64,000 nucleotides of DNA from Spirochaetota bacterium (lineage in GTDB: Bacteria; Spirochaetota; UBA12135; COTS27; JAFLEE01). Positions 3,354 to 34,975 of the stretch are shown in pieces. The DNA is taken from assembly GCA_017302015.1 (NCBI GenBank), contig JAFLEE010000014.1:5097-69096 (forward strand), given 5' to 3'. The translations under genes and the position numbers were made by a program. Position 1 is the first letter of the stretch, and every line of letters starts with the position of its first letter. A model generated the notes under the pieces. That model was not told the DNA's origin, made no database searches, and worked only from the letters and a program-made list of their open reading frames with translations.

Positions 3354-3407
3354 TGCGAACCATTGACTTTTATTAAGTGTATCAATACACTAAATACAGG
3401 AGTTCCC

Positions 3408-6769: not shown

Positions 6770-8100
6770 TGATACATAAGAAACCCCGGCGCGAATCCTG
6801 GCTTCAGGTAACGTCAAATTTCTTTCGCACATTCACGACCACCCCTGTCAGCCTTAAGCAGCATTCATCACGGGCCTCCGGTAGATTTTGAGATATCGGT
6901 GGGTGCCCCATTTGGTCGAGGAAACGAACCGTAGACGGGCTGCGACCAACATGAGCGCCGAGCAGCCATCAGGGAAGGCGCCTACCACACGCGTGCGACG
7001 ACGTACCTCACGGTTAATCCGCTCCATCGGGTTGTGGGTCCGAATTTTCGTCCAATGACTGCGTGGGAAGCGCATGAAAGTGATTGTCTCCTCAATGCCG
7101 GATTCGATTAACGCGGCGGCCTGCTGGAGTTTCATCTTTCTAAGTTTCTTCACCACGAGGCGGGCTTTGGCAAGGGCGGCACTGCGGTCTTCCTGGGCAT
7201 GGATGGCTTTGAGCATTGCGGCCACTTCTCGGCCGTGCTTGCGAGGGGTCACCCCGAAGACATTTCGGTAGAAATGCACGACACAACGTTGCCATTTCGC
7301 TTGGGGGAAGATCTCCCCGAGCGATTCTACGAACCCCAGGGCCTTGTCCGAAATCACTAGCTTCACCTTCTGCAACCCTCGCTCTTTTAGGTGGCGGAGA
7401 AAACGGAGCCAACTATCCTTATCTTCCTTGCTTCCCTCGCAAACCCCCAGAATTTCCCGGTGACCATCAAGATTCACCCCGAAGGCGACGAGGACACTCA
7501 CGTTCTTATAATGGCCGCCCCAGCTGCGGTTGAGCCAAATGCCGTCCAAGTAGAGGTAGACGTATTCGGGCGCTAGTTTCTGGTTGTGCCAGGCATCGAT
7601 CTTTTCATAAAGCTGTTTATTGAGGTTACTGATCGTTCCAGGGGAAACCTTGGAACCCCAGAGTGCTTCTGTTATGTTTTCGACGCGTCTTACCGATACC
7701 CCTGCCAGATACATCTCCATGAGGGCTTCCTCGACCGAGATCATTTTGCGCCGATACCGTTCGATGATGGCACTTTCAAAGGGTAGGCTCCGGAGCTTGG
7801 GCATCTTTAGGGTCACGCTCCCCAGCGGGGTTTCAAGTTTCCGTGCGTAGTGCCCGGCACGGGTGGTTTTCCGCCCCGGGCTCCTTTCGTAGCGTGAAGC
7901 CTGTGCAATCTGCTGGGCCTCGCCATCCAGGAGCTGGTTGAGGGTGTCCGCGACCGTGCCCTCGACCAGCGTTTTGAGATGTTCCTCCACCTGGTGCCTA
8001 TCAATTTTTATTGCATTTTCGACCAAACTTGCCGATGATTTCATTGGTCCCTCCGTTGCGGGTTTGTTGGCAATTCATTCTCGCCAACAGGGGGGCCTTT
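6770..8100 (-). mobile_element. IS256-family insertion sequence (ends approximate)
   Basis: Intact IS256-type transposase gene with about 60-80 bp flanks. Terminal inverted repeats not confidently resolved by eye (weak ggcg[ac]gaat match at both ends). Confidence 0.65.
6854..8044 (-). CDS. IS256-family (Mutator-type) transposase
   Basis: 396-aa ORF with hallmark IS256 segments: YERSPGRKTTRAGHYARKLETPLGSVTLKMPKLR, MISVEEALMEMYLAGVSVRRVENITEALWG, YVYLYLDGIWLN, VLVAFGVNLDGHREILGV, WLRFLRHLKERGLQKVKLVISDKALGFVESL, KWQRCVVHFYRNVF, RTHNPMERINREVRRRTRVVGAFP. Confidence 0.95.
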   Translation of the reverse strand: MKSSASLVENAIKIDRHQVEEHLKTLVEGTVADTLNQLLDGEAQQIAQASRYERSPGRKTTRAGHYARKLETPLGSVTLKMPKLRSLPFESAIIERYRRKMISVEEALMEMYLAGVSVRRVENITEALWGSKVSPGTISNLNKQLYEKIDAWHNQKLAPEYVYLYLDGIWLNRSWGGHYKNVSVLVAFGVNLDGHREILGVCEGSKEDKDSWLRFLRHLKERGLQKVKLVISDKALGFVESLGEIFPQAKWQRCVVHFYRNVFGVTPRKHGREVAAMLKAIHAQEDRSAALAKARLVVKKLRKMKLQQAAALIESGIEETITFMRFPRSHWTKIRTHNPMERINREVRRRTRVVGAFPDGCSALMLVAARLRFVSSTKWGTHRYLKIYRRPVMNAA

Positions 8101-13423: not shown

Positions 13424-15856
13424 TCATTCCACGGCCAGCTCAAAGAACGGGGTGGGCCCCGCGTCCAGTTTCGAGGTATCCAAGGCGAGTTTTACCGTAT
13501 CCTTGGAGACGTTTTGGAAGTTCAGGCGACCTTTCCGAGAACCGTCGATGGCCAAGGCCCAGCCCCTAATCCGTGCGGCATCCGGATGTCGAAGGGTCAG
13601 CGTGAGGGCCACGGTCTGCATCAGCACCGGCAAGTTTCCCAGGTTCACCAAACTCACCCGGTCTTCCGAAACCTCGAAATCGCTGTTGAGCGCGTCGGTG
13701 TTCACCACGAGGAGCATGCGCCGGCACTGCGGGATGGGTTTGCCGTCCAGCGACGAGAGGGCGACGACGAGGTCTGACGGCGCGCCTTCGACCTCGAGGC
13801 AGGCGAACTTCGCGGCCTGGCCCTTTTTCAGGGCCGCCGCCTCCGTCCGGGGTGCCTGGACGAAGAGGGACCTTCGCGCGATGTCCATAAGGAGTTCGCC
13901 CGTTTCGGCCTGGAAAATACCCAGAGCCGCGCGGGTCCCGTTTGAAGGCCCCAGGATGGAGGCTTTTCGCAGTTCGGAGACCCACGCCTCGGCATCCGCG
14001 TATTGAAAGGCGCCGCCGTCGCCGCTGGCATGCGTGGTCAGGGTGAGCTCGCCCCCCGTCTGGGGGCTCAGGGTCAGCTGGGCCTCACGGGGACCTTTCA
14101 CCAGCGGGGGCCGCGGGCCCTCCCGATCGATGCCGAAGCGGCAGAGCAGCGAGAGCAGGCTCTGCGCGTCGCTGAGCTTCTTCTGCATGCTGTTGCTCTG
14201 CGTCAAGAAACCCTCGGTGAGCATGACCTTGGCGGTCTTCTCCGACGGGCGCACATCCCTTCGAGCGAAGAGCAGCGTCGCGAGGACCTCGTTGGCCCGT
14301 TGCACGGGGTCGCGGCCGATGAAGAAGGAACCCATGGGGTAGGCCACCCTCATGAGGACGGGTTGGCAATGGGCCACGAGGCCCGAAAATCCCTGGAACG
14401 AGGCGTAGGCGGGAAAGAGCAGGCCGGCTTCATGGCGCAGCCTACCCCAGTACGGAAAATTGTTCTCGGTGATGAACAGCGGCCGATCGACATAGCGCGC
14501 CTGCGCGGCTTTTCGGAAATAGGCCCCCCCGTTTTCGAGGGCGCCCTGTTGGGGGTTCTTCGTCCCCGGCGTATTGAAACCGGTGGGATGGTTGTGGTAG
14601 GTATGGAAGGCGACCACCGTGCTCTGGCCGCGCGCGGCTTGGTTGCGCAATCGCACGACCGTATCGTAGACATGGGTCAGGCCCTTGTAACCCAGCCCGC
14701 GGATGGTTCTCTCGTACCACGCCAACAGGTCTTCCTGCAACCCAAAAAGAAACAGGCCCGCATCGTTCCCACGGGCCTGGTCGTACTCGAGCGCGAATTT
14801 CTTATCGAAGGGGATGGCGTCGAAGGAAGCGAACGCGTCGGCCTGGTCGCCCCAGGCCTGCTTCAGGCGCTCGATGGATCCTGCGTACCGCTTACCCAAG
14901 AAATCACGCCATCGTTCGGCGGCGAGCGCCCTCAGTTCTTCCTTCTGGAACAGGCCCAATTCGGCGATGAGATCCTGCTCGTTCCAGAAGGTCAGCGAGA
15001 CGAGCGCCGCATCCTCCGCCAAGGAGAGGCCCGTATAGGGGTTGCGGTGCGTCAGGAGGGCCTCCGCGCCGAACGCCCAGGCTTTCCGGGCTTCCGGATC
15101 CAGGAGGAGCCTCTCCCGAAGCTGGCGTTGGTCCGCCTCGTCCCAGCGCCCCTTCAGGAAGCCGTTATGGTAGGCGAGATCGAGCGTGTAGTAGATGCCC
15201 GCCTCCCGCAGGCAGGACAGGAAAAAATCCAAGCGCTCCAGGTTCGTCTGATGGAGTTCTCCATCGCACTGCGCGCCGCTGCTTAAGATCATGTCGAGGT
15301 TCTGGAGGCGAAGCAGGTTGTAGCCTTGCCTTCGGATCGCCGTGACGTGGGCCCTCACATTGGCATGCTCCCCTTCCCGATCGGGGGCGAGCATGGAAAA
15401 TTCCAAGTAATTCCTATTTTTCTCGCTGAAGCCCCTCTCGTGGACGATCGAGTCGTAGCCAAAAAAACGCACTGGGGACCCCGGCGTGTTCTCGAAGGCG
15501 AAGCCGCCGTGGGGACCGACGACCACCCGGCCGTGTTTGCCGGCCGGGCCGATTTCCACGAGCGCGCTGAAATCGAGGGCCGAGCCGGCCTGGATGACCG
15601 TCGATGACATATCGACGGGTTTCCACTCGTCGCCCGCGGCGACTTTCCAGGCGTGAAGCGGGACGACCATGAGGAGGGTCCATAGGAAAAAGGAGCCCCG
15701 AACTCCCCAGTTGGGCGCGCCGGGGTTCGATTCCAAGCGGGACCTCAACACCGGCATCATCCATGCTCCTCTCAGTCGGGCGAAAAACGCGGCGAGCCCG
15801 ACGCCAAGGGGGGCGGCGCCTCGTGGGTACGCCTTTTTCGTTCCAGAGTTCATCAT
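13424..15856 (-). CDS. clan GH-A TIM-barrel glycoside hydrolase, probably secreted; start uncertain (possible internal start about 15760)
   Basis: 810-aa ORF with acid/base-like VSLTFWNEQDL and nucleophile-like LFITENNFPYWG motifs, spaced as in GH-A enzymes. Hydrophobic N-terminal region. Confidence 0.75.
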   Translation of the reverse strand: MMNSGTKKAYPRGAAPLGVGLAAFFARLRGAWMMPVLRSRLESNPGAPNWGVRGSFFLWTLLMVVPLHAWKVAAGDEWKPVDMSSTVIQAGSALDFSALVEIGPAGKHGRVVVGPHGGFAFENTPGSPVRFFGYDSIVHERGFSEKNRNYLEFSMLAPDREGEHANVRAHVTAIRRQGYNLLRLQNLDMILSSGAQCDGELHQTNLERLDFFLSCLREAGIYYTLDLAYHNGFLKGRWDEADQRQLRERLLLDPEARKAWAFGAEALLTHRNPYTGLSLAEDAALVSLTFWNEQDLIAELGLFQKEELRALAAERWRDFLGKRYAGSIERLKQAWGDQADAFASFDAIPFDKKFALEYDQARGNDAGLFLFGLQEDLLAWYERTIRGLGYKGLTHVYDTVVRLRNQAARGQSTVVAFHTYHNHPTGFNTPGTKNPQQGALENGGAYFRKAAQARYVDRPLFITENNFPYWGRLRHEAGLLFPAYASFQGFSGLVAHCQPVLMRVAYPMGSFFIGRDPVQRANEVLATLLFARRDVRPSEKTAKVMLTEGFLTQSNSMQKKLSDAQSLLSLLCRFGIDREGPRPPLVKGPREAQLTLSPQTGGELTLTTHASGDGGAFQYADAEAWVSELRKASILGPSNGTRAALGIFQAETGELLMDIARRSLFVQAPRTEAAALKKGQAAKFACLEVEGAPSDLVVALSSLDGKPIPQCRRMLLVVNTDALNSDFEVSEDRVSLVNLGNLPVLMQTVALTLTLRHPDAARIRGWALAIDGSRKGRLNFQNVSKDTVKLALDTSKLDAGPTPFFELAVE

Positions 15857-16347
15857 CGAAGTTCTCCGTGCTTTTAGAGTATGAAATCATCCCGAGAAAC
15901 AAGCAAGGCCACCCGATCCCCTGCGGCATGCCGGATAAGAGCCGGTTCACGAAAAGTTGAATCGCCACTTCCTTTGCTGGATGGTTCTTTTTCCGGGAAT
16001 GAATACTTGCAGAGGATGCATGATTGCAGCGAGAGCCTCACCGCGACATACAGATTCCAGGCGATGGGAGTTTCCTGACCGCTTCGATCGCAGCCTAAAA
16101 CGCCGCCGAGGCAGTTCGTCCGGGAGATCGCCCCTGGAGGCCGCCAACGCGCCCTCGATTAGAATCTGTCTACGGGCCCAAAATATTATAGTAGATTCGC
16201 GTAACGAATGGATGCCCATCCCCGTCGCGGGTCTTACACGGGGCCTATCGTGCGTGGGCTCATCCAGCCCCCACTCCATTTGTGGCTGGCTTGTGGACGA
16301 TCTGACACCGAAAGCCTGCCCGCGCTCCATGGGAAGCGATCCAGTCC

Positions 16348-16734
16348 TTAACCGGGCTCCTCGTGGAATCGCTGCCGGTAAGCCCGGGGGCCCAACCCCA
16401 CATGGCAATGGAACAGCAGAGAAAAATGGGGGTAGGTTTCGAAGCCGCATGCGGCGGCGATGCGCCCCTCGAGCTTGCGTGTCAGACGAAGGAGTCGCTG
16501 GGCGCGGTCGAACTGCTGTGTCAAGTGAGATCGGCGAGGGGGCAGCCCCATGGCGGCGTGGTAGAGCCTGATGAAATAGCTGGGGGCGAGGCCGTATTGG
16601 CCGGCGAGGGCCCCGTTCGCCGGGGTAAGTTGGGCCGTCCGGGGCCATAAATCGAGGCTGGCTTCGAAGGCCGGGCGCAATCCACCCAGATTCACCACCG
16701 GCGGCAGCAGCGGCCGTGGCACCGGGCATCCCAC
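16348..16734 (-). pseudogene. AraC-type HTH (C-terminal half) fragment
   Basis: 128-aa ORF, ...YGLAPSYFIRLYHAAMGLPPRRSHLTQQFDRAQRLLRLTRKLEGRIAAACGFETYPHFSLLFHCHVGLGPRAYRQRF. There is no N-terminal sensor domain. Confidence 0.45.
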
Positions 16735-16755
16735 GCGATGGCCCGCGTCGCCTCG

Positions 16756-17634
16756 TCAAGTCCTTGCCGAAATACGCCTTCGCGTCTCCGGGACTTCGGC
16801 CCCGCGCCAGCGGCCGGGGCTCGTTCCATAATGGCGGCGGAACACCTTGATGAAATACCCGGGCTCGTTGAACCCGCATTGGCGGGCGACTTCGGCGACG
16901 GGGATTTTCCCCGGGGCGAGAAGGGCGCAGGCCCGGCCCAGCCTGAGTTCATCGAGGTATTTATGGAACCCGAGGGAGCCGGCCTCGCGGAAGAGCCTCG
17001 AGATGTGGTCCGGGGATAACCCGAAGCTGCGCGCGACCGAGCTGCGGTTGATGGGAAGGTGGCAGCATTCCCTCATGTGCTCGCGGATGCTCTGGTAGAT
17101 CGAACCGGGGGGATTCGCCCACGCCGCGGCGCTTCCGTGGAACGCTTCGCGGGCCGTGCGCAGGATCACGTGGAAGAGGGCGAGGAGTAGCTCCGGGGAG
17201 CGCCCCTCGCGCTCGGCGGAAACCAAAGCGTTCAGGAGCCATTGCCCGTCGGCGCCCAGGGGGAAACCCGCGAGTTCCTGGTCCTGCGGATCGAGGCCTT
17301 CGGGGTCGGAAGGGGACCGATGGCCGAGGGTCCACCGCATGTCACGGGGAAGGAAGTGGATGCAGAACAAGGTGCGTGCGCTGGCGAAGGAACGGAGATT
17401 CCAGGCGCCGGTCCCTGCGAAAAAGGCGTCGCCCCGGACCAGACGGCGTTGGACCGGCCCCGAGCCCGATAAATACTGGATGGGCAGGGCGCCATGGAGG
17501 ACGATCTCCAAGTGGGGATGGCCGGGAAGCCAGGCCCCCGGTGGGGCCTCGCCGCGGCGGGCGACGAACACGCGTTTGATCCCGCCATTTTCCAGGAGGG
17601 CTTCGAGCGCCTTGAGAACCCGGGAATCGGCCAT
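16756..17634 (-). CDS. AraC family transcriptional regulator
   Basis: 292-aa ORF. C-terminal HTH_18: SVARSFGLSPDHISRLFREAGSLGFHKYLDELRLGRACALL...VAEVARQCGFNEPGYFIKVFRRHYGTSPGRWR. Confidence 0.85.
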   Translation of the reverse strand: MADSRVLKALEALLENGGIKRVFVARRGEAPPGAWLPGHPHLEIVLHGALPIQYLSGSGPVQRRLVRGDAFFAGTGAWNLRSFASARTLFCIHFLPRDMRWTLGHRSPSDPEGLDPQDQELAGFPLGADGQWLLNALVSAEREGRSPELLLALFHVILRTAREAFHGSAAAWANPPGSIYQSIREHMRECCHLPINRSSVARSFGLSPDHISRLFREAGSLGFHKYLDELRLGRACALLAPGKIPVAEVARQCGFNEPGYFIKVFRRHYGTSPGRWRGAEVPETRRRISART

Positions 17635-17756
17635 GTCGTATTTATACCATTACGGACTTATATTTCTTATTGTTTTTACGGTTAGAGCCGCCTATAATGA
17701 CGTATAAATACAATCGGCGAAGCGCGCATCGCGCTGGCCTCGACGGAGCATGACCC

Positions 17757-18893
17757 GTGCAGATCGACCACGCCTTCCCCGGCGGAAATATCCTCCTCGA
17801 AAAGATCGAGGGGGATGACGTCACCCTCCGGCAAGACCTGCGGGATACCGAGGGTTGGTGGTTCTATTGGTGTTTCCGGGTGCGGGGGGCGGCGGGGCGG
17901 ACGCTCCACTTCCATTTCCCGGATACCGGCGAGGCTTGGCAGAGCGTGATCGGGGTGCGCGGACCCGCGGTGAGCAGGGACGAGGGCCGCCATTGGAATT
18001 GGCTGGGGCGGGGATCCGCCTCGGATTTCTCGTTCACCTTCGGCGCGGATGACGACGCGGTCCGCTTCAGTTTCGCCATGCCCTACCAGGAGGATCGCCT
18101 CGAGCGCTTCCTCGACTGCCACGTTGGCCATCCGCGCCTGCGCCGCGAACGCCTTTGCCATTCGCGGAAAGGGCGCTCTGTGGAACGGCTCCATCTCGGC
18201 TGCCTCCACGGGGCGCCTCGTTACCGGGTGGCGCTCACCTGCCGCCACCACGCCTGCGAAATGATGGCGAGTTATTCCCTGGAGGGCCTTCTGGAAGAGA
18301 TCCTGGGCGATTCGGAAGCGGGGGCATGGCTTGGCGAGAACGTGGAGTTCCTCGCCATCCCCTTCGTCGACAAAGACGGCGTCGAAGACGGCGACCAGGG
18401 CAAAAGCCGCAAGCCCCACGACCATGCCCTGGATTACGGGGAGCATCGCCTCTACCCCGAGACTACCGCCCTCGCCGCCTTCCTTCCCGAATGGTCGCGG
18501 GGGAAACTCGCCATCGCCCTCGACCTGCATTGCCCCTCCATCCGCGGGCCGTTCCACGAAGACCTCATGTCGCCCGACCGCCTGCGGGATGCGGGCAATT
18601 GGGCGCGCACGGAAGATTTTTTCAGGGTCTTGGAGAAGGTACAGCAAGGCCCCCTGATTTTCAGGCTTGCCGACAGCCAGGCCTTCACGACCTGGACCGG
18701 CCCCGAGGGGCCGAAGGGACCTGTCGCGGGTCTCATCACTACCTGGGTGCGGACCTTGCCTGGCCTGCGCTTCGGCACCGCCCTCGAAATTCCCTACGCC
18801 AACGCCGGCGGGAAAGAGGTGAACCAGGAAAGCGCGACCGCTTTCGGCCGTGACCTAGCGCGGGCGTTGCATCGATATCTCGCCGACGGATGA
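17757..18893 (+). CDS. M14-family zinc carboxypeptidase-like protein
   Basis: 378-aa ORF with HxxE-like HHACEMMASYSLEG, FLAIPFVDKDGVEDGD and IALDLHCPS (DxHS-like), as in M14 peptidases. GTG start. Confidence 0.6.
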   Translation: MQIDHAFPGGNILLEKIEGDDVTLRQDLRDTEGWWFYWCFRVRGAAGRTLHFHFPDTGEAWQSVIGVRGPAVSRDEGRHWNWLGRGSASDFSFTFGADDDAVRFSFAMPYQEDRLERFLDCHVGHPRLRRERLCHSRKGRSVERLHLGCLHGAPRYRVALTCRHHACEMMASYSLEGLLEEILGDSEAGAWLGENVEFLAIPFVDKDGVEDGDQGKSRKPHDHALDYGEHRLYPETTALAAFLPEWSRGKLAIALDLHCPSIRGPFHEDLMSPDRLRDAGNWARTEDFFRVLEKVQQGPLIFRLADSQAFTTWTGPEGPKGPVAGLITTWVRTLPGLRFGTALEIPYANAGGKEVNQESATAFGRDLARALHRYLADG

Positions 18894-18894
18894 A

Positions 18895-19685
18895 ACGGAC
18901 CGCTTTCGCCGTGGGGAACGGCCTTGATGCGGGCGGTCCTCGTCGAGGACGCACTGCACCGCAACGAGGGGTAACTCACGCCTATGAAAACTTCCATCCC
19001 GCCCTCGTACCCAACCTGTCAGAAAGCCGGGTCATCGAATGGGCCCGGGCCTCGGAGCCCTAGCCCGCCGTCGAAGAGCGATTCATACGTTCGCGGCGCC
19101 ATCTGGAGACCCATGACCCCGAACCCCTGCGCCCCTCGGACCTCGCCGCGGTCGCGGGCCTGTCCGCCTCGCGTTTTTCAAGGGCCTTCCATGCCGCCTT
19201 CGGCGCCTCGCCCATCGAACACCTCATCCAGGTCCGACTGGAGGCGGCGCGCGAGAAACTCCTGTTCACGGTTTTTCCGACCCGCGGGATCGCCTTCGGA
19301 GTCGGTTTCCCCGACGCCCTCCATTTCTCTAAGGTTTTCACCCGCGCCAGGGTCGGGGGCTCCGGGCCTTCCAACGGGGCCAATAAACACCGAACGGGGC
19401 AGGATCTTCCATTTACCCGGCCGGGATGCCGGCCCATGCTTACCCCCGAACGGGAGGTGCTTCGTGAATCATGGCCCAATTCGGTCCATCGCCCTCACGG
19501 GGTCCTCATGCGGTTCAGTATCGGCGCGGAGAACAGGGCGTCCGGCCACCCGGAAAGCCTCTTCGGGAAGACCCTGGAGGAGGTCGGCAGAATGGGCGTC
19601 GGGCCGTCGATGGATTGCGCCATCCATGGGAACTACCTCTATTCCATCGGGGAAGGGAAACTCCGCATCTCCCGACACGCCTAGC
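18895..19685 (+). repeat. degraded duplicate copy (about 85-90% identity by eye, with indels and an internal stop) of 24610-25400
   Basis: Direct nucleotide comparison: gacgcactgcaccgcaacgaggggtaactcacgcctatgaaaacttccatcccgccctcgt... versus gacgccctgcaccgcatcgacggggaactcagcgcccatgaaaacttccatcccgccctcgt... The similarity continues through ...atgcttaccccc/ag aacgggaggtgc... and ...cacccggaaagcctcttcgggaagaccctggaggag... to ...ggaaactccgcatctcccgac. Copy A contains ccctagcc (stop) and deletions. Confidence 0.8.
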
Positions 19686-20132
19686 AAACAGTCGCTCCAA
19701 GATGCCTCACGATCCGCAAGGGCACTCTTTGAACTAGATCCCTTGTTTGCCGCATAAAGATCGACCTCGCGATATCCCTCGTGGTTTATTTTTAGACGGC
19801 CCGGCGATACGAGAATGCTTCGTGAATTTTCCTAGTCCAAAATCTAAACTATTTATACGCCCCTCGATCAGGGATCATTGGATAGCGTTTCCAGTCCAAA
19901 AAGAACAATCCGCACTCGCGTCCCGAGAACGATTTGAACCGAATTCTTGAATCATGATCCCAATCAATTTTTTGACATATCGAACGATGCACACAGCCCA
20001 CAAAATTCTCCAAGCCATCGATAAGGGATCGCGCCCAATCAAGGCGCAAAGCGCTCGTCGTCAGGGGGCCGTTCCTTTCATACCTCCTCGCTGAATACCG
20101 GCGCCGCAGTCCCGGCGGAAATTCGGATCGTT

Positions 20133-21224
20133 TCATGGATCTTCTTTCGCGACGAGGCGTTGCAAATCAATTAAATCATAACGGAAGACGCCTATCCCGT
20201 TGGACTCGGTGGGCCAATTGACATAAAGATATCGACCGTCCCTCGAAAAACTTGAATCGACGTGGATCCTCCTTTTCCAAACAAGGTCAACGTTGGTTGT
20301 CTCGTCCAATAGGAAATGTCTTCGGGTTCCTTTCGCTCCCGCATAGTCCAAGGAAAGGACCAAAGGCGAGGATCCATACCATGTCTCTCCGGCGATCCAC
20401 CTTCGATCGGGGGAGACTCCCGGATGACAGAGGTCCTTCTCGGTGCGGGCCACGGGTGGTCCGACCTGGACTCGGTCCAAGTCGAAAAGCGTACCACCGG
20501 CGTAGATCCTTTCATTGTCCCACCAGAAAGGGTGCGCTCCGGGGCCGGGGAAAAAACGGACCTCATTTCCATTGGTCGAAAAGGTGAAGGCGAATTCCGG
20601 CTTTTGGACCTTGACCCAAATGCGACCCCCCTTAGGGCTCCAATAGCGATGCCATATATTCTGGGGCACCGCGCCGCCCATCCTTTCCTTCCAATTGGAG
20701 AACGCCCCGATGTCGAGTATTTTCCGGGTCACGCCCGTGCGTGGATCGACGGTCCAGACATTCCCGTTTTCGAACGAACCGGTGAGGACCAAGCCTGTGC
20801 CGGGGTGGTAACTCACGGGTCCGCAGTTTCCACACGTGATCGTGCGTAAAATTTTTCCCGTCGCGCTTTCGCGAACCACGATCTCGTTGCTGGGGCCTCG
20901 GTGGACAAATGATTCCTCGCCGATCCACAGGGCCATGACCCCGGTGTGCGGGATCGCCTTGATGGCCTCCACAAGTACCCGAGGCTCGGAACCATCGAGA
21001 CGGGAGATCATCAGTTGCGCCGGTTTTTCTAAACCATCGGGCCATTGGACGAAAAGAATGTGACGCCCCTCCGGATCGTCAGGGAACTGGTTCCAGTGAT
21101 AAGCTTTTCGGGCATAGACGGCGGTGGAAACGGGGGTTTTTTGGACCACGGCGCCGCTCATTCGGATTTCAGTTCCTCCAAAAGCCGCGGACATCATGAA
21201 AAGGAGGGGCATCAGGCGCTTCAT
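20133..21224 (-). CDS. secreted beta-propeller-like hypothetical protein (lower-GC gene)
   Basis: 363-aa ORF with signal peptide MKRLMPLLFMMSAAFGG. Repeated WxxxGxxI / YxxxW strands. Noticeably lower GC than neighbours, and an AT-rich flank at 19700-20130. Confidence 0.7.
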   Translation of the reverse strand: MKRLMPLLFMMSAAFGGTEIRMSGAVVQKTPVSTAVYARKAYHWNQFPDDPEGRHILFVQWPDGLEKPAQLMISRLDGSEPRVLVEAIKAIPHTGVMALWIGEESFVHRGPSNEIVVRESATGKILRTITCGNCGPVSYHPGTGLVLTGSFENGNVWTVDPRTGVTRKILDIGAFSNWKERMGGAVPQNIWHRYWSPKGGRIWVKVQKPEFAFTFSTNGNEVRFFPGPGAHPFWWDNERIYAGGTLFDLDRVQVGPPVARTEKDLCHPGVSPDRRWIAGETWYGSSPLVLSLDYAGAKGTRRHFLLDETTNVDLVWKRRIHVDSSFSRDGRYLYVNWPTESNGIGVFRYDLIDLQRLVAKEDP

Positions 21225-21324
21225 GGATTTTCCTTTTTGGGTCTGGCCGTCTTTCCGTATTTTGCCTTTATGCTTCGGCGGATTTCAAGGATGCCCAACG
21301 TGTAACTGAGTCCTTCGATGGGGG

Positions 21325-22656
21325 TCATTCGGTCTTGCCGCTTGCTTCCCCCGCCGAATTCACAACGCTTCCGTCACCCATTCTCATGGGCTTTACCGCA
21401 TCCCAGAGGCGAGCCATGGCCAGCAGGGGGTTATGTCCCAAATAATCGCAGCAGGGCTGGTTGAATGGGGTCTGGGGTTTGCGTTCAAGATCCGCCTGGG
21501 AGCCGCGATCGGGATGGTAGAATTCCAAGATTTTTCCCGTTCGCTCAAACTGAAGCGCCGCGGAATCCAGTGCCCCTTCCAGAAGTTGCCGGGCTGCGTC
21601 TTCACGTTGATAGGCGCAGCATCCTTTTGCGACCCAAAAGACCATGCTATTCCAGACAGGGCCGCGCCACATGCGCAGCGTGAAGGCGGGCTCATCTCGT
21701 GAGACGGAGGGCAACGGGTGGGCGGTCAAGAATCTTTTTGGATTCAAGAGATGCTCGTCGATGAGCCGCTGGGCCTGGGCCGGGCTTGCGGCTCCTACCA
21801 CCATGGGCCAGAACCCATCGAAGCTGAGCGCTTTGCTCTTGCTGTCTCTTTCTATCCAGGCATCGAAAAAGAAACCAACCTCTTCGTGAAAGAGATGGTC
21901 CTGGATATACCGCTGTATTTTCGTTCGTTTCTCAGCGTATTCCCCCGCGGAAATGGAAAGTTTTTTTGACCATTCCTCAGCCGTCCGGTACAAAAGGAAG
22001 AGATGCGCGCTCGCATCGATGCAGGCCGCCTTTTGGTTTCGAACCTTGTCAAATCGCACCCCTTCATCGACACCGCTTTCCCATTCATGATCGAGGATGT
22101 CACGGTAGAAAAAGCCATCCCCCGCCTTCCGGTCCCGCTCAAACCACCCGATTTGACGGATTAATTTCCCATAGGTCTCCTCGCGTAAGCCTTCGTCCCC
22201 ACCAAGTAAAAGCAGCTCGTCCACCAAAATCGGCCAGAGGGGCGGGTGTGTCCACGTCTGTGGTTTCAGGTGGAAAGCGCCCTCGCGAACGTAGAGCACC
22301 CCGGGGAGCATCCCCGTTCCGTACTGGAGCGCCAGATAGTGCATCAGTTGCGACCGCGCATGCCCGGGGTTTTCCGGCAGCACATCGAGTGCCTGGTGGA
22401 TCGTATCCCAATGCCCAAATGCCGGGCCGTAGCAATAGCCGGGCCCAATCTCTTCCCAAGGGGTCATGAAAGGGGGCAATGGCGCCCGGATGCTTTTTTC
22501 ATGAAGATCCATCGTATATTTCAGGAGCGGCTGCCAACTGGCCTTCCCCGGGAACGGGGTGGGACGGTTTAAGTGCATGGGTGTTTTCTCGGGTCCGTTC
22601 ATCTGGGTTTCCATGTGGAAAGGATGGGAATAAAGAGATCTCACGGGTATATCCAT
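21325..22656 (-). CDS. six-hairpin (alpha/alpha)6 glycoside hydrolase, GH63 / trehalase-like superfamily; start uncertain
   Basis: 443-aa ORF, ...FDGFWPMVVGAASPAQAQRLIDEHLLNPKRFLTAHPLPSVSRDEPAFTLRMWRGPVWNSMVFWV..., typical of GH63/GH37/GH100-type barrels. Confidence 0.65.
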   Translation of the reverse strand: MDIPVRSLYSHPFHMETQMNGPEKTPMHLNRPTPFPGKASWQPLLKYTMDLHEKSIRAPLPPFMTPWEEIGPGYCYGPAFGHWDTIHQALDVLPENPGHARSQLMHYLALQYGTGMLPGVLYVREGAFHLKPQTWTHPPLWPILVDELLLLGGDEGLREETYGKLIRQIGWFERDRKAGDGFFYRDILDHEWESGVDEGVRFDKVRNQKAACIDASAHLFLLYRTAEEWSKKLSISAGEYAEKRTKIQRYIQDHLFHEEVGFFFDAWIERDSKSKALSFDGFWPMVVGAASPAQAQRLIDEHLLNPKRFLTAHPLPSVSRDEPAFTLRMWRGPVWNSMVFWVAKGCCAYQREDAARQLLEGALDSAALQFERTGKILEFYHPDRGSQADLERKPQTPFNQPCCDYLGHNPLLAMARLWDAVKPMRMGDGSVVNSAGEASGKTE

Positions 22657-22710
22657 TTGAACACATCATACCTATAATTAACGTATTCTCCTCCCCGCCG
22701 GGGGCACGGC

Positions 22711-23484
22711 ATGAGCATCGGACGGCCCTTCACCTGCTATTACTGGAAAGTCGATCGGCGTTATACCTTCCGGGCCCATTCCCATAGCGATCGCTATGAG
22801 CTCATCGTGGGCCTCACGGGTGAACTGACCCTTGCCATCGCCGACCGTTCTTGGAAAATCGCCCCCGGTCGTATCCTGCTGTTATCACCGGGAACCCATC
22901 ACGGGATTTGGAAGACCGGGAGCCTCGACACCACCTATTTCAACGCCACCTTTGCGGGGTCGGATCGCCTCTTCCACGAGCTCGCCCAGCGGGGCCCCCT
23001 CCAAATCCCAAAAAATTGCGACGCCTTTTGGCTGCGCCGGGAGACGCGGGACCGGGTGCAATACCTCAACCCGGCGAGCGAGGCCTGGCTCATGGGCAAA
23101 ATCTACGCGTTGTGCGCCGAGCTGGTGCTGTTCTCGAATTCCCGCTCGGCGTTGTCAGAAAAGAAAGTAGCCCCGGGTCATTTTGGGGAGCGCCTCCAAG
23201 CCCTCGTGGAGAGCCAGCCGGACCAGCTTCACCGGCGCAAGCACCTTGCGGCCTATTTCGGCTTCACCGACGCCGGCCTCTCCATGAGAGCCAAGCGGAG
23301 CACGGGGCATCCGCTGATGAAACTCTATGATCAAGTCAAGTGCGCCCAGGCCAGGCGTTTTCTCCAGAGGGGTTTTTCGGTCAAAGCGACCGCCGAAGCT
23401 TGCGGGTTTGCCAACGCATTCCATTTCAGTCGCAAGTTCAAGTCCGTCTTTGGCCTTCGTCCGTCCCAAATCCGGGAGGAATAA
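22711..23484 (+). CDS. AraC family transcriptional regulator (cupin sensor + HTH)
   Basis: 257-aa ORF. N-terminal cupin-like HSHSDRYELIVGLTGEL; C-terminal HTH ...VKATAEACGFANAFHFSRKFKSVFGLRPSQIREE. Confidence 0.85.
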   Translation: MSIGRPFTCYYWKVDRRYTFRAHSHSDRYELIVGLTGELTLAIADRSWKIAPGRILLLSPGTHHGIWKTGSLDTTYFNATFAGSDRLFHELAQRGPLQIPKNCDAFWLRRETRDRVQYLNPASEAWLMGKIYALCAELVLFSNSRSALSEKKVAPGHFGERLQALVESQPDQLHRRKHLAAYFGFTDAGLSMRAKRSTGHPLMKLYDQVKCAQARRFLQRGFSVKATAEACGFANAFHFSRKFKSVFGLRPSQIREE

Positions 23485-23771
23485 AGGGGATAGGGCACTC
23501 GGCATTTTCCCGACCGTCCTGCTATTTGCGCCTCATAGAGAGACCGAGGCGCCAAGCTTTCGCCTTTCCCGATACCTTCGACGATTTCGGTATCGCCCGT
23601 TTCGAACACGGGTGCTGGGCCGCGGTTGCCGATCGCGTATCATTGCGGCTCCAAGGAGCAGGCGTGTCAGCGCCATCCTCTCGCCCCCGGATTCCCCGGC
23701 AGTTCTCCATCATGGCCATTTCCATGATCGTGACGTCTGAGGCGCCGCTTCGCAGCCTCTTCCCACCGGCC

Positions 23772-23995
23772 TTCATGGGGACGGGCTGGCAATGGGCCAC
23801 GGGGCCCGAAAAATCCTGGAACGAAGCGCGGGCGGGAAACAGCAGGCCAGCTTCGGGGCGCAGCTTTCCCCAGTACGGAAAATGGTTCTCGGTGATGAAC
23901 ATCTGCCGATCGATATGGCGCGACCGCGGAATGCGGGCAAACGGGCGCGTACGGAAGATTTTTTCCGGGTCCTGGAGAAGGTTCAGCAATGCCCC
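23772..23995 (+). repeat. mosaic of two abutting short duplicated gene fragments (from 14351-14510 of the GH gene and 18587-18653 of the M14 gene)
   Basis: 23772-23925 (tcatggggacgggctggcaatgggccacggggcccgaaaaatcctggaacgaagcg...cagtacggaaaatggttctcggtgatgaacat) parallels 14351-14510. 23928-23995 (ggaatgcgggcaaacgggcgcgtacggaagattttttccgggtcctggagaaggttcagcaatgcccc) parallels 18587-18653. Confidence 0.75.
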
Positions 23996-24297
23996 GGCCA
24001 AATGGCCGCGATCTTCCTACCAGAAGAGGGCGGCTTCGACCTCAGGATAGCGTCCGGTGTACGGGCCCTCGGCCTCCGACGATTCCACCCCTTTGAGAAC
24101 CGACGACACCTTGTTCTATAATTGGCGAATCGCCTGGCCCATCCGTTGGAAATGCCCCAAGAATTTTTTTTCGCCCCGTCGGCACCGGTTCGACCGCTTG
24201 CCGGCTATCATTCCCTAGCGCCATCGCGTCCCGCCATGGGGACCGCCCACGACCGCCGATTTGCGAGAAGGATCCCGGCGGGGTAGAGTATCTGTCC

Positions 24298-25104
24298 ATG
24301 CGCCGCCAGTACCGTGTCTACTTGCCGGAGAACCGTCCCGATTCGGGCTCCCTCGCCGTCATGTCCCTCGGGCATTTCCAGCGCGAGTCGTTCTTCCGTT
24401 ATCCCCATGGCCACCCCGCCTGGGCCTTCGTTTATTTCGAGACGGCGGTGACGGTGCTCCTCGGCGGCGCCAAGCGACAGATCGCCGGCGGCCACGCGGT
24501 CGTCTTCCCGCCTTCGCGGCCCCTCTTCTACGGCCATGAGAAGGGCTTCCGCCAGCGCTTCCTTTGCGTCCGCGGCCCCGAACTCGCCCCATGGGCGAAG
24601 GCCCACCGGCTCCCCATCGAGGCGCCCATCCCCTGCCCCTCCGCGGCCCTCTTCGCGGACGCCCTGCACCGCATCGACGGGGAACTCAGCGCCCATGAAA
24701 ACTTCCATCCCGCCCTCGTGCGCAACCTGGTGGAGAACCTGGTCATCGAATTGGCCCGAGCCTCAGAGCCCCGTCCCGCCCCCGCCATCGATGAGCGACT
24801 ACTCCGTGCACGGCGCCATCTGGAGACCCATTACCCCGAACCTCTGCGCCTCTCGGACCTCGCCGCGGTCGCGGGCCTGTCCGCCTCGCGCTTTTCCCGG
24901 GCCTTCCATGCCGCCTTCGGCGCCTCGCCCATCGAACTCCTCATCCAGGTCCGACTGGAGGCTGCGCGCGAGAAACTCCTGTCCTCGGACTTACCGATCC
25001 GCGAGATCGCCTTCGAGGTCGGCTTCCCCGACGCCCTCCATTTCTCGAAGGTTTTCACCCAGCGCCAGGGTCAGGGGCCCCGGGCCTTTCGGCGGGGCAA
25101 ATAA
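24298..25104 (+). CDS. AraC family transcriptional regulator
   Basis: 268-aa ORF. HTH ...LSDLAAVAGLSASRFSRAFHAAFGASPIELLIQVRLEAAREKLLSSDLPIREIAFEVGFPDALHFSKVFTQRQGQGPRAFRR. Confidence 0.85.
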   Translation: MRRQYRVYLPENRPDSGSLAVMSLGHFQRESFFRYPHGHPAWAFVYFETAVTVLLGGAKRQIAGGHAVVFPPSRPLFYGHEKGFRQRFLCVRGPELAPWAKAHRLPIEAPIPCPSAALFADALHRIDGELSAHENFHPALVRNLVENLVIELARASEPRPAPAIDERLLRARRHLETHYPEPLRLSDLAAVAGLSASRFSRAFHAAFGASPIELLIQVRLEAAREKLLSSDLPIREIAFEVGFPDALHFSKVFTQRQGQGPRAFRRGK

Positions 25105-25400
25105 ACACCGAACGGGGCAGGATCTTCCATTTACCTGGACGGGATGCCGGCCTATGCTTACCCCAGAACGGGAGGTGCCTCGTGAACCATGGCCGAATGA
25201 ATTGCATCGCCCTCACGGGGGCCCTCATGCTGTTCGGCATCGGCGCGGAGAATACGGCGCCCGGCCACCCGGAAAGCCTCTTCGGGAAGACCCTGGAGGA
25301 GATCGGCAGAATGGGCGTCGGGCCGTCGATGGACTGCGCCGTCGACGGGAATTACCTCTATTCCATCGGGGACGGAAAACTCCGCATCTCCCGACTCGAC
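24610..25400 (+). repeat. intact source copy of the segment duplicated at 18895-19685 (spans the AraC 3' end, the intergenic promoter and the 5' end of the LVIVD gene)
   Basis: See the feature at 18895-19685. This copy keeps both reading frames open. Confidence 0.8.
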
Positions 25401-27215
25401 GATCCGGCCCGCCCCGCCCTCGTTTCGACCCTGACCGAGCTCGGTAATACCCGGCAGATCGATGTTGCCAAAGGCATCGCCTACATCACCTCCCGGGAAG
25501 ACGGCCTATTTCTCGTGGACGTCTCCGATCCGCTGAAACCGGCGATCCTTTGCCAGTACGACACGATCGAATTGGCGACGGGGATCGCGGTGGCTGGGAA
25601 TCTCGCCTACATCGCCTGCCGTTCCATCGGTGTCGAACTCGTTGACGTGGCCGATCCCCGCAAACCCAGGCATCTGAGTTCGGTCCGCACGGGCGAGGCC
25701 CAATCCCTCGCCGTGCGGGATGGCGTCCTCTACGTCGGCGTCTGGGGTTCCCGCGAACTCGTGGTGTGCGATGTGGGCGATCCGTGGTCCCCCCGCGTCC
25801 TCTCCAAGACCCCGTTGGACGGCTTCGGCGATGGGGTCGATGTGCGGGGCAAGTATTGCTTCGTCGCCACGGGCCACCACGCGCGCTCCCTCAGGAAGCA
25901 CGACGCTTCGGACCCCGGATTCGGCGCCGGCCATGGCCTCGAATGCTATGACGTCTCGGATCCCGCGAAGCCGGTCCTCGTCTCGCGGGTCAAACTCCCC
26001 AGGCTCTACTCCCTCGGGAACGACATGTGGGACGTCCAGGTGTCGGGGCCCTACGCGTTCGTGGGAGATACCTATAACGGCGTCTTCGCGGTGGAGGTTT
26101 CCGACCCATCGCGCATGCGCTTCGCCGGGCACCGCCAACTCGACTGGGTCGCGGCGCGCAAGCAATTCGGTTTCGTCGGCGGCTTCGCCATCGGGAAGGG
26201 CTGCCTCTATGTCGCCGGCGGGTCCACCGACCTCCACGTCATCGCCGCGGCGGGGATGGCGGTTCCCCAGATCCGGGAGACCGGCTGGGCCCCCGCGATC
26301 CCGCCGGAGCCGGATTCGCCGGATGCGCGCTTCCACCGCTATGCCGCGGGGGGCCAAGTCTATGCCGTCGCGATTTCGGGATCGACCGCGTTCGCCGCGG
26401 CGGGCGCCGCCGGCTTGCACGTGTTGGACTTAGGCGGGGGGGGCCTCGCTCGCCGCGCGGTGGTAGAGACGGGGGGATTCGCCCTGGATGTGAAGATCAG
26501 GGGCGACCTCATCCTGACCGCCGAAGGGAAGGGAGGTCTCGTGATCTCCCGTTGGCAAGACGACCGGATGGAGTTCCTCGGGCGCTACCGCGACGGGAAT
26601 CTACCGGTCAAGCAGGTGGTGCCCGTCCCCAACTCGCCCTACGTGCTCCTGCAGGTCGGCGGATCCCAGATGCAGGTGGTGGACATCTCGGATCCGAAGC
26701 GGCCGAACTTCGTGTATCGCGACAAACGCACGGGACTACTATACGGCTACCAGATCAGCGAAGGCGCGCTGGAGGACCGGTGGGGCCTCTGTTTCTGGCA
26801 TGTCAGCGGGTTCCATTGGTACGACCTGAAGACGGGCGGAGTTCCCGCCTACGGGGGCAATTTCCAACTCAATATGAGCCCCGCCGACGGCGCGGTCTTC
26901 ATCGACGGAGGCGCCCTGGCCATCGCGCGCGGGGGTTATTTCATCCTCCGCCCGGGGGAGTTCGCGCCCGCGGATGGCGTGAAGCCCCTCACCCTCGCCG
27001 GCCATCCCCTCTCCGGGAAGCCGAGCCTCTACGGCAAGACGCTCTACCTCGCGGATCGTTTCTCGGGGATGGTGCAGGTGGTCGACATCGAATCCCTGGA
27101 AAAACCCAGTTGGCGGCGTTCGTTCGAACTTCCCGGGAATCCGGGGGCGGTCCGGGAGTTCCGCGGAAAACTCGTCATCCCCGCGGGTTATCAGGGCTTG
27201 CTCCTTGAAAAATAG
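25182..27215 (+). CDS. secreted LVIVD-repeat beta-propeller protein
   Basis: 677-aa ORF. N-terminal hydrophobic MNCIALTGALMLFGIGA. Repeated units of the LVIVD type: YAYITSREDGLFLVDVSDPLKP, LAYIACRSIGVELVDVADPRKP, YAFVGDTYNGVFAVEVSDPS, MQVVDISDPKRP. Confidence 0.8.
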   Translation: MNHGRMNCIALTGALMLFGIGAENTAPGHPESLFGKTLEEIGRMGVGPSMDCAVDGNYLYSIGDGKLRISRLDDPARPALVSTLTELGNTRQIDVAKGIAYITSREDGLFLVDVSDPLKPAILCQYDTIELATGIAVAGNLAYIACRSIGVELVDVADPRKPRHLSSVRTGEAQSLAVRDGVLYVGVWGSRELVVCDVGDPWSPRVLSKTPLDGFGDGVDVRGKYCFVATGHHARSLRKHDASDPGFGAGHGLECYDVSDPAKPVLVSRVKLPRLYSLGNDMWDVQVSGPYAFVGDTYNGVFAVEVSDPSRMRFAGHRQLDWVAARKQFGFVGGFAIGKGCLYVAGGSTDLHVIAAAGMAVPQIRETGWAPAIPPEPDSPDARFHRYAAGGQVYAVAISGSTAFAAAGAAGLHVLDLGGGGLARRAVVETGGFALDVKIRGDLILTAEGKGGLVISRWQDDRMEFLGRYRDGNLPVKQVVPVPNSPYVLLQVGGSQMQVVDISDPKRPNFVYRDKRTGLLYGYQISEGALEDRWGLCFWHVSGFHWYDLKTGGVPAYGGNFQLNMSPADGAVFIDGGALAIARGGYFILRPGEFAPADGVKPLTLAGHPLSGKPSLYGKTLYLADRFSGMVQVVDIESLEKPSWRRSFELPGNPGAVREFRGKLVIPAGYQGLLLEK

Positions 27216-27359: not shown

Positions 27360-30300
27360 GTGACTGTGCGCTCCATCCTTTGCATCCTCTCCTTGTTCGC
27401 GCTCGCCGCCGCCGTGGAGCCCGTGCCCATCGCCCTCCCCAATGGATCCTTCGAACAGGATGCCTGGGATGGCGATCGGGGACTACCGACGGGGTGGACC
27501 CCGGCTCCGATGAACGAGTTCGCCATCTGCGCATTGGACCCCACCACGCGCCATGGGGGCGGATCCTCCCTCCATCTCAAGGACGCCCATACCGGCCAGG
27601 CGAACGAGGGCCTGTCGTATGCATTGCCCCCCAAACAAGTCGAAGCCGTCCTGGGCAAAACCCTCCGATTACGCGGCTGGGTCCGGCAGAAATTCTCGAA
27701 AACCGGCGGCAACGTGTTCCTGGGCATCATGGTGAAGACCCGGGACCAGCGCTGGATCCTGCAGAAGGCGGGGCCGGACGGGGAAGGGGAAAGCCCCTGG
27801 GGCGAATACGCGGTTCGGCACGCGATCCCCCGGAATGCCGAGTTGGTGCGGATCGTGCTCGCCTGCGCCCAGGGCTGGGGGAATATGGCGGAGGCCTGGT
27901 TCGACGATTTGTCCATGGCCTACGAGGAAACGGAAGCCCCCGTCGCCCGGGCCAAGTCCGGGAGCCGGGTGGATGTCTACGACGATTCGTTCCCCAGCCA
28001 ATGGCGCAAGGCCAGCTGGGGCGGACTGACGGTCGAGGAGACGGAAATCGATCCACTAGAGGGCTCCAAGCGCCTGCGGGTTAGGGCCGCCGCCGGGACG
28101 AAGGCGTACTCGGGTTGGCGGATCTTCACCGAGGCCATCAATCGCATGGCCTCGTTCACCGCCTATCGGGAGAACGGCGGGTACCTCGAGTTCGCCGTGC
28201 GACCGATGCCGCCCATTCAGGTGGCCTGGATCGCCGAGAAGGGCGCCGCGCCCCCGGTTCCCATCCGCGATTATGCCTCTCCCCTCGAACGCGGATGGAC
28301 GCGCGTGCGCATTCCCCTCCAAAAATTGATGCGGCCCGAGGGCGGGGAACGCCTCGCGGGCCTCATGTTCCAGTGTTCGGCCGCGCCGGAAGGGGAGGAG
28401 ACGTCCTTCGATTCGATGGCGATCGCCTGCGACCGCGAAAACCTGGCGGCGCCCACGGCCCTGCCGGAAGGGATCCGGGCGGCCCTCGAGGCGATCGAGG
28501 GGCCCGCGGTCCCGTTCACCCGGGATGATTTCGAGCGACCGGAGATTCGGGAGGGCACCTTCTATTGGAAAGGTCGGCCCCATTTCTTCGCTGGGCCCTG
28601 GCATTACGACAACGACACCGATTTCAAGGGCCCCGCGACCCACCGGGAAGGCTACGGGGCGGCGGGCTACGGCGAGACCGTGCTCGACGCCGCCCAGGCC
28701 AAGACCCTCGGGTTCACCTCGCTGCAACTCAGCAGCGCGCCCAATACGCCCCTCATCCTGGGGCTCGACGGGCCGATCATCCCGCGCGACATCGAACGGA
28801 CCCAATTCTACCCGGGGTTCCTCAAGGGGCTTTCGGGGATGCCGTTCGTCCTGGATTACGCCTGGATTTGGGGCCTCGAGAAACTCGACCTCGTCGGCGA
28901 GGGGCGGCTGCCCGCCGACATCCTGCAGCAGAACCGGGGGTGGCACGCGTTCATCCCGTTCTGTCCGGAGCACCCCAAGGGCCGGGAGATCTACCGGCGC
29001 TATTTCCAAAGCGGCGTGCGCTCGGCGCGGGCCAACGGCGGCAACCCGTTCGTCTACGAACTCTTCAACGAATCCTCCTACCAATGCCGCTGCCGATATA
29101 ATCGCGCCGCGTTCGCCGTCCGCCTGCGCGCGCGGTGGGGGAGCATCGCGGCCGCCAACGAGGCCTGGAAGAGCCGCTTCGCCGACTTCGACCAAGCCGC
29201 CGCCACAGAACCCCTCGAGAAATGCCCCGGCCTCTTCGTCGATTGGCTCCAGTTCACCGGGGACCGCTACGTCGAGGTCCTCGAGGAGGGGAAGAAGGCG
29301 ATCCGCGAACTCGACGGGCGACCGCGGGTGTACTTCACGGAGCAGGCCTCCATCCCGAATTACCTCTCCGCCAGCGGGGCCTCGATGGACTACCGCAAGA
29401 TCGCCGCGGCCCTCGACTTGGTCTGCGTGGAGGGCGGGGTGCCCTTCGGCTCCTCGCGCCAGACCAAGGCCCTGTCCGATTTCGAGGCCGTGATCGACAA
29501 CCAGGGGATCCAATATTCCCTCTACCTCGACATGGCCACGGCCCTGGCCAAGGGCAAGCCGGTGGTCAACCACGAACTCTATTGCGGCCGATTCGAGGAC
29601 GGGCTCCGGGTGCCTTCCCGCCGCAGCGACCTCCTCACTTCGCTGTGGAACGAGATGATCCACGGTTCCTCGGCCTCGTATTTCTACGTCTGGGACAAGC
29701 GGTCCTTCGACTGGAAAACCCCCGAAGAGGCCAAACAGAACGTCCTGCAGGGCGGGTACAAGGCTTTCTCGCTGCTGAACCCCTACGCCTACCCGGCGCA
29801 AGCGCACCTCGGGATCCGCGATTTCCACGATGAGATGGAACGCCTGGGGGCTCTCGTGCTTCCGGGCAAGCGCATCCGGGGCCGCGTGGGCTTCTTGATT
29901 TCCTACGCGAGCCTGCGCCAGGCGGCGATCACCCAGGCCCCGACCCTGCGCCTAGCCCGGGAACTCTACCAAACTATCCTGGAATCCCACCTGCCCTTGG
30001 AGGTGGTTTATGAAGAAGATTTCACCGCCAAGGCTCCGTTCGAAGCCGTGGTCGCGCCCTTTTTAGACCACCGATTGGAGCAAACGCCCGCGCGCCTCAC
30101 GGGGTTCGCCGAAGCGGGGGGCCTCGTCGTCGTGAGCGCCGGCGCCCTGGGCTTCGACGAGTACGGCCGTCCCGAAGACGCCTCGGGCTTGCTCGGGGTC
30201 CGCCGCGGCGAAAGCCGCCTCACGGCCACCTGGGGTTCCGGGGATCCGGTCCAATCGCTCAAGGAGACCTACGACGCCACCCCCCTCACCGCCAAGGTGC

Positions 30301-33801: not shown

Positions 33802-33805
33802 GGGC

Positions 33806-34663: not shown

Positions 34664-34975
34664 GGTTCGACGATATCCTGCCCACCCCCATTATTCAACT
34701 CTTTGGATCGGCTGCGACCGATCGAAGCGCCCAGAGCCCGATTACTATAAAAGCGGCTTCGAGCGTGGCTCGGGGCGCCCATTCTTCCCCGGCACCCCCG
34801 GGGCAAAGTGGATCTTCGCGCGTCGGTTTGACGGCGATGGCCGGACGACGAGCGGGAATGCGGGGGCGGGAGAACGGATTTCACCCCTCGGCAGAATTGC
34901 CGGTGGCAAAGACCAGATCCATTCCCGGGCTCACCCGATCCCGAGGATCCCGCGGGCCCGGCGACGGAGGAGGCC

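Follow-up and report, generated by a model that had tools for sequence, protein, structure and literature searches.

Why does an uncultured Spirochaetota bacterium carry, upstream of an intact pair of genes for an AraC-family regulator and an LVIVD-repeat protein, a second and visibly damaged version of the boundary between them? The locus lies in a 64,000-nt stretch of a metagenome-assembled genome (MAG; GCA_017302015.1, contig JAFLEE010000014.1, positions 5,097-69,096), here called the window in its entirety. Copy A of the boundary occupies 18933-19679 and copy B 24643-25398, both on the plus strand. We put the probability at about 75% that copy A is a non-functional pseudogene fragment with no role as a gene, the relic of an old, probably tandem, larger direct duplication within the genome.

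Gapped blastn and local alignment place the two copies in a direct repeat with 87.8% identity over 756 columns (E = 0), with 81 mismatches in 747 aligned bases and a longest exact match of 41 nt. The alignment has four gap openings and nine gap positions, and every gap represents bases missing from copy A: 1 nt at 24689, 6 nt within 24772-24780, 1 nt at 25061, and 1 nt at 25217 (copy B coordinates). These values corroborate a preliminary description of the sequence, which had proposed a direct repeat between 18895-19685 and 24610-25400 with 85-90% identity and several indels. The repeat itself stands, but its left edge had been drawn about 35 nt too far out, where the alignment is forced and there is no real similarity. 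Nor does copy A begin exactly after the stop codon of the preceding M14 peptidase gene (18893), as had been suggested, given that homology is detectable only from about 40 nt past it.

Copy B is part of two intact open reading frames (ORFs) with Pfam domains, in line with its earlier designation as the functional copy that spans the AraC end, the intergenic segment and the LVIVD start. It comprises the last 462 nt (codons ~116-268) of a gene for a 268-aa AraC-family regulator (24298-25104, plus strand; Pfam HTH_18, 78.2 bits, and HTH_AraC), a 77-nt intergenic segment (25105-25181), and the first 217 nt (codons 1-72) of a gene for a 677-aa LVIVD-repeat β-propeller protein with a signal-peptide-like N-terminus (25182-27215, plus strand; Pfam LVIVD, E = 1.8e-35). 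The latter gene has 772 homologues in the protein database; these are often fused to extra domains in proteins of ~1100 aa. A sister strain, represented by a Joint Genome Institute (JGI) metagenome contig (L001), matches copy B at 100% identity throughout the repeat, and its LVIVD gene is 99% identical to that of the window. The adjacency of AraC and LVIVD is kept in this contig and in a more distant locus at 58% identity (L003). In copy A, the corresponding parts on the plus strand are ψAraC (18933-19386, parent codons ~116-268), a ψ-intergenic segment (19387-19463) and ψLVIVD (19464-19679, codons 1-72).

Copy A lacks AraC codons 1-115 and all of LVIVD past codon 72, and the remaining sequence is disabled. 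In-frame stops (TAA at 18972, TAG at 19061) interrupt the parental AraC frame. Frameshifting 1-nt deletions occur near 18979 and 19343 in the AraC part and near 19499, where the LVIVD frame is broken, and the AraC part has also lost 6 nt in frame. The TAG and the frame-breaking deletions noticed earlier in the AraC part are confirmed, and the lesions are more numerous than claimed. A truncated 82-aa ORF (19436-19684), previously described as the LVIVD N-terminus, is indeed present, but only its last ~60 residues derive from LVIVD.

The pattern of substitution is consistent with long-standing decay. Mismatches between the copies fall on the three codon positions as 12/18/23 in AraC and 6/7/10 in LVIVD, and a uniform spread is not rejected (p = 0.11). 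A locus with an 80%-identical LVIVD gene (L002) served as outgroup; it overlaps the repeat only at the LVIVD start, the intergenic segment and the final ~30 nt of AraC. It assigns 20 changes to the A branch and 10 to the B branch. The A-branch changes in LVIVD are distributed evenly over codon positions (5/5/5), and the B-branch coding changes are at third positions or in variable signal-peptide codons. Polarization of the AraC amino acid differences with four orthologues (51-62% identity) yields 20 replacements derived in A, two derived in B and eight that stay unassigned. Twelve of the A-derived replacements hit positions that are invariant in B and in all four outgroups. The dN/dS ratio (nonsynonymous to synonymous substitution rates) is 0.42-0.51 between A and B, compared to 0.19-0.32 between functional orthologues. 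Taken together, the codon-position spread, the polarized changes and the dN/dS ratios indicate that copy A evolved unconstrained for most or all of its history, and that copy B has been under selection throughout. Copy A thus combines similarity to an intact parent in the same genome, disabling lesions and truncation, and relaxed selection, the features by which a pseudogene fragment is recognized. Its characterization as the older, decaying copy is right as far as decay is concerned; "older" has no meaning for two copies that come from one event, of which A just evolves about twofold faster.

The repeat had also been presented as a duplication of about 0.8 kb. It is not isolated but one of three collinear homologous pieces that point to an ancestral block of at least 5.3 kb. 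Immediately right of a 4.09-kb spacer (19680-23769) that separates the left and right blocks lies a fragment of a second copy of a gene encoding an 810-aa protein (residues 447-504; 23770-23928, minus strand). This fragment is 86.2% identical to its left-block counterpart at 14347-14505 (minus strand), with 67% amino acid identity in blastx. It is followed by a fragment of a second M14 peptidase gene (residues 275-299; 23921-23995, plus strand) that is 86.7% identical to 18579-18653 (plus strand), or 88.6% over the core 18584-18653, with 80% identity in blastx. The three pieces, with the A/B repeat as the third, occur in the same order and in direct orientation, are 86-88% identical, and have diverged homogeneously (22/159, 10/75 and 81/747 mismatches; χ² p = 0.49). 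Mismatches in the 810-aa-gene piece are flat over codon positions (6/9/7).

In the right block, the 810-aa-gene and M14 fragments abut and overlap by 8 nt (23921-23928). The octamer CGCCTGCG is present at both source sites in the left block, as the last 8 nt of the 810-aa-gene counterpart (14498-14505) and as the first 8 nt of the M14 counterpart (18579-18586). With the shared octamer at both sources and the 8-nt overlap of the fragments, the CGCCTGCG junction bears the signature of a 4.07-kb deletion, mediated by microhomology, within a right copy that once held the whole interval. The truncated ends that border the spacer (codon 72 of ψLVIVD and residue ~504 of the 810-aa-gene copy) face each other, as expected at a tandem-duplication join. 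The pieces are also collinear and in direct orientation, as in a tandem arrangement, and a single duplication of at least 5.3 kb (14347→19679) would be the simplest account. Permissive blastn and tblastx comparisons of the spacer and the inter-piece regions with the left block and the downstream genes returned no further decayed homologous pieces. Synonymous divergence (dS) between A and B is ~0.15-0.3 compared with ~1% divergence between the strains, and the duplication is therefore much older than the strain split. On the minus strand, an ORF of 159 aa that starts with TTG (23522-24001) holds the 810-aa-gene fragment in frame. It matches no family and probably arose by chance over pseudogene debris.

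These observations can be assembled into a putative history. The ancestral locus would have comprised the 810-aa gene (−), followed at some distance by AraC2 (−), M14 (+), AraC (+) and LVIVD (+). A block that started within the 810-aa gene, at position 14347 or further left, and extended at least as far as codon 72 of LVIVD may have been duplicated directly, after which the left copy would have retained the 810-aa gene, AraC2 and M14, and the right copy AraC and LVIVD. The later steps can be read from the sequence. In the right copy, the 4.07-kb deletion between the CGCCTGCG microhomologies joined the 810-aa-gene and M14 fragments (23770-23995). In the left copy, AraC codons 1-115 were deleted, after which stops, frameshifts, the 6-nt deletion and ~6-7% substitutions without codon-position bias accumulated. 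The 4.09-kb segment of foreign composition now sits exactly between the blocks; it may have entered at the duplication join, or it may have replaced the central part of a duplication that was larger still.

Several points weigh against this reconstruction. The blocks do not meet head to tail at a single join, as 4.09 kb of unrelated DNA (19680-23769) lies between them, and the spacer hides the original join, which makes a strictly tandem origin presumptive. The order M14-AraC-LVIVD was not found in the genomic contexts of M14 homologues at 60-64% identity. The reconstruction draws on one MAG contig, and the strain-variable island that holds copy A is on no other contig in the collections searched. 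Finally, the codon-position statistics are of modest power (p = 0.03-0.11), and a pairwise A/B dN/dS below 1 leaves room for a period in which ψAraC was functional.

The island in question was delimited by blastn of the sister-strain contig against the window and spans 15857-24242. Identity between the two is 98.8% up to 15856, inside the 810-aa gene, drops to 81% over 15857-16333, and is 98.7% from 24243 onwards. In the window, the island contains AraC2, M14, copy A, the spacer and the fragment mosaic. The sister strain has a different segment of ~4.7 kb in its place (~992-5745 of L001), of which ~4.1 kb (1653-5745) has no match in the window. This cassette encodes a Zn-dependent alcohol dehydrogenase, an HxlR regulator and a 27-aa ORF. 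The site is a replacement hotspot. Neither limit (15857 or 24242) falls at an end of the repeat, and copies A and B are therefore not the recombination end-points of the island. Because the duplication predates the strain split, the sister-strain lineage must, on this sequence-based chronology, have lost the structure by replacement, or else the window lineage re-acquired it. Every island protein that was looked up by exact sequence in a collection of 15 billion proteins is a singleton known from this MAG only, and an exact 24-nt probe over the junction of copy A and the spacer has no match in JGI metagenome contigs.

The left margin of the island (15857-16755), a stretch of ~0.9 kb that lies upstream of the 810-aa gene, lacks any convincing sign of coding and is only 81-83% identical to the sister strain. 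An ORF at 15947-16879 has a GC content at third codon positions (GC3) of only 0.57 and no family hit. This margin could represent a further decayed gene or regulatory sequence that evolves fast.

The spacer within the island encodes a 363-aa protein without a family hit (−), a GH63/MGH1-like glycoside hydrolase (GH; −) and a cupin-AraC regulator (+), together with an AT-rich non-coding stretch. Its GC content is 0.563, compared to ~0.65 in the flanks, and its genes have a GC3 of 0.64-0.74, while the window averages 0.79±0.08. The 363-aa and GH genes have the lowest GC3 in the window, on par with the ORF at 6854-8044. We infer that the spacer is horizontally acquired DNA. Scans against Pfam, NCBIfam and PHROGs detected no integrase or transposase among its ORFs. 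No tRNA or tmRNA is present between 10 and 30 kb of the window, and no Rfam family or terminal inverted repeats are found at the spacer. A scan of GTDB species representatives for the spacer GH and for LVIVD recovered no relatives, and this lineage is without a close representative there.

Two forms of an integrative origin were considered and rejected. An island flanked by attachment (att) sites would be accompanied by an integrase, a tRNA and a short exact core; none of these is present, the repeat being ~750 nt long and 88% identical, and only the atypical composition fits. An integrative element that supplied copy B is contradicted by the island-free sister strain, which has B-type sequence at 100% identity.

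The variability of the region invites the idea that copy A was imported with M14 and AraC2, through horizontal gene transfer (HGT) or homeologous recombination, from a lineage ~12% diverged, in which case the A/B divergence would be the divergence between lineages. Copy A is inside an island absent from the sister strain, the region undergoes replacement and holds compositionally foreign DNA, and the island proteins looked up are singletons, all of which fits such an import. We nevertheless regard it as unlikely. The A branch appears neutral from its origin (5/5/5 over codon positions; 20:2 derived replacements), which means that copy A has been a pseudogene for nearly all of the divergence and would require a genome that carried both a live and a dead copy. 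In a protein database of 5.8 billion clusters, there is no LVIVD or AraC lineage nearer to A than B is, the next relatives being at 80% and 62%. The left part of the island is moreover host-like (GC 0.651, GC3 ~0.80).

Somewhat less probable than an import is the proposal that the repeat is a self-contained dispersed duplication of ~0.8 kb, whose promoter and leader still drive transcription into 19.7-21.2 kb. In its favour, no part of the repeat is better conserved than the intergenic segment (93.5%), and copy A keeps the blocks that it shares with B, L002 and L003, plus a GGAGG Shine-Dalgarno sequence and a GTG start. The higher conservation does not, however, reach significance (Fisher p = 0.25 in the A/B comparison and p = 0.08 for the A branch), and the two extra collinear fragments show that the duplication was larger. 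The duplicated promoter itself is putative: a σ70 scan at ≥ 9/12 consensus matches finds nothing in either copy, and the −10-like hexamer reads TATGCT in B and CATGCT in A, a derived T→C change. Transcription leaving copy A would meet a terminator-like hairpin followed by TTTATTTTTA (19767-19784, plus strand), 85 nt downstream of the copy, and then run antisense to the next gene (20133-21224), which is convergent on the minus strand. An orphan promoter would therefore be unable to serve that gene. Terminator-like sites in the region are no more numerous than in shuffled sequences.

The intergenic segment may still matter in copy B. The blocks between AraC and LVIVD consist of GGCAKGATYYCCATKTACC, a TATGCT-like hexamer 17 nt later, and GGAGG, and they are conserved among A, B (25105-25181), L002 (1-159) and L003 (9856-10000), hence down to loci at 58% identity. 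A weak TTTACC-N17-TATGCT arrangement is conserved in B and L002, with CATGCT in A. Given this conservation, the region is a plausible candidate operator/promoter of the AraC-LVIVD pair in copy B.

A further and decidedly improbable scenario is one in which the dead copy is still active in cis, either as a decoy that titrates AraC-B or as the source of a short AraC-dependent antisense transcript; a variant invokes a nascent chimeric regulator of 199 aa. Copy A does retain a start codon, a Shine-Dalgarno sequence and the conserved intergenic blocks, which may include an AraC-B operator and a −35 element. If the scenario were true, an antisense transcript to the 363-aa and GH genes, both presumably acquired horizontally, would couple their expression to the LVIVD regulon.

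An assembly artefact, be it a chimeric MAG contig or a wrongly expanded repeat, is more improbable still. The window comes from a MAG and no independent contig covers the island in the collections searched, but 12% of sites differ between the copies and no exact match exceeds 41 nt, so that an assembler could neither collapse nor expand them. A chimeric join passes from one genome to another at homologous sites and would not make a second copy that is truncated, frameshifted and interrupted by stops. Both flanks of the island occur together on the independent JGI contig at 98.7-98.8% identity, and the microhomology deletion scar appears to be a biological signature.

GenBank (PGAP) annotates part of copy A as a coding sequence (CDS) for a 199-aa "helix-turn-helix transcriptional regulator" (P0250; 19085-19684, plus strand), a read-through ORF with a non-canonical ATA start. 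Its frame links the helix-turn-helix (HTH) frame of AraC, the former stop and intergenic segment, and the LVIVD frame by way of two of the 1-nt deletions. That this is a real new chimeric gene, with an AraC HTH fused to an LVIVD-derived tail, is the least credible of the alternatives despite an open frame of 207 codons (19064-19684), a Pfam HTH_18 match of 55.7 bits that exceeds the gathering threshold, and a purine-rich GAAGAG 6 nt upstream of the ATA codon, as the frame has no ATG, GTG or TTG before 19436, downstream of the HTH region; the HTH_18 match ends at position 68 of 80, where the frameshift removes the conserved G-x-S/T-P-x-x-F-R end; 12 replacements hit positions invariant in orthologues; and the protein is a singleton cluster. 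Copy B, too, is open over this off-frame stretch (ORF 24536-25447), so that openness is expected by chance in GC-rich DNA. A gene of the AraC/XylS family would be expected to have a complete double HTH domain of ~100 aa and a standard start codon, and the 199-aa ORF has neither. The CDS is most likely a homology-driven annotation artefact and ought to be marked as a pseudogene.

Duplicated pseudogenes from resolved bacterial duplications typically show deletion junctions at short microhomologies. The locus resembles known remnants of tandem or segmental duplications in its direct collinear repeats, in truncated genes that face the join, and in the 8-nt microhomology at the deletion junction; also, decay has been complementary, with one copy of each duplicated gene affected. 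It differs from them in the 4.09 kb of low-GC DNA that separates the blocks, with the join lost, and in its age (dS ~0.15-0.3), which is not that of an unstable recent amplification. In E. coli and B. subtilis, borders with 9 bp of microhomology suffice for precise illegitimate recombination and tandem duplication (PMC11111574).

A second point of comparison is the lpl cluster of tandem paralogues in S. aureus, where the evolutionary unit consists of the 3' end of one ORF, the intergenic sequence, and the 5' end of the next (Tsuru & Kobayashi 2008, PMC2568036). The surviving repeat has the same shape. The lpl unit, however, is kept among functional paralogues by recombination at a conserved central region (PMC2568036). 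In the window, AraC and LVIVD are not related to each other, copy A is dead, and deletion and insertion breakpoints set the limits of the repeat.

Integrative elements can duplicate the end of their target gene, as e14 and phage 21 do in icd of E. coli. Superficially like such islands, the locus has atypical DNA flanked by an imperfect direct repeat of a gene part, with one functional and one pseudo-copy. Unlike them, it has no integrase, tRNA or short exact att core, its functional copy B is the resident sequence, and the boundaries of its strain-variable region (15857 and 24242) lie elsewhere than the ends of the repeat.

The feature is thus a further example of a well-known class, an ordinary by-product of genome rearrangement in a plastic and HGT-prone locus. 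Its biological importance is small, and it is a textbook case of a duplication resolved by complementary decay and microhomology-mediated deletion, set in a strain-variable, HGT-prone carbohydrate-utilisation neighbourhood of an uncultured bacterium. In practical terms, copy A gives rise to a mis-annotated ORF and offers a weak substrate for homologous recombination with copy B. The three-piece structure is also a datable internal marker, at dS ~0.15-0.3 about 15 times older than the sister-strain split, that could help to reconstruct the rearrangement history of the locus if more genomes of the lineage appear.

The neighbourhood (13424-15856 on the minus strand, 27360-31472 on the plus strand, and the downstream genes of the sister-strain contig) resembles a polysaccharide-utilisation locus. 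Among its products are several AraC regulators, a sulfatase, a CBM9 protein, a GH42-like protein of 1370 aa and the 810-aa protein, which is without a match in Pfam or NCBIfam. Where the window is compared with the sister strain, differences are strongly concentrated at 30743-31243 and 33743-35743, with 13-27 per 500 nt compared to 0-6 elsewhere, which suggests recombination tracts from a more divergent lineage.

Three minor features lie outside the repeat. The ORF at 6854-8044 (−; 396 aa, GC3 0.65) is a compositional outlier like the spacer genes and may be a second horizontally acquired gene. A match to the twister-sister ribozyme family of Rfam in the coding region of the 810-aa gene (15510-15592, minus strand) is below threshold (23.3 bits versus a gathering cutoff of 34, E = 0.21) and most likely due to chance. 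An inverted repeat of 47 nt with 83% identity (1311-1357 and 1981-2027) flanks ~0.6 kb near the left end of the window.

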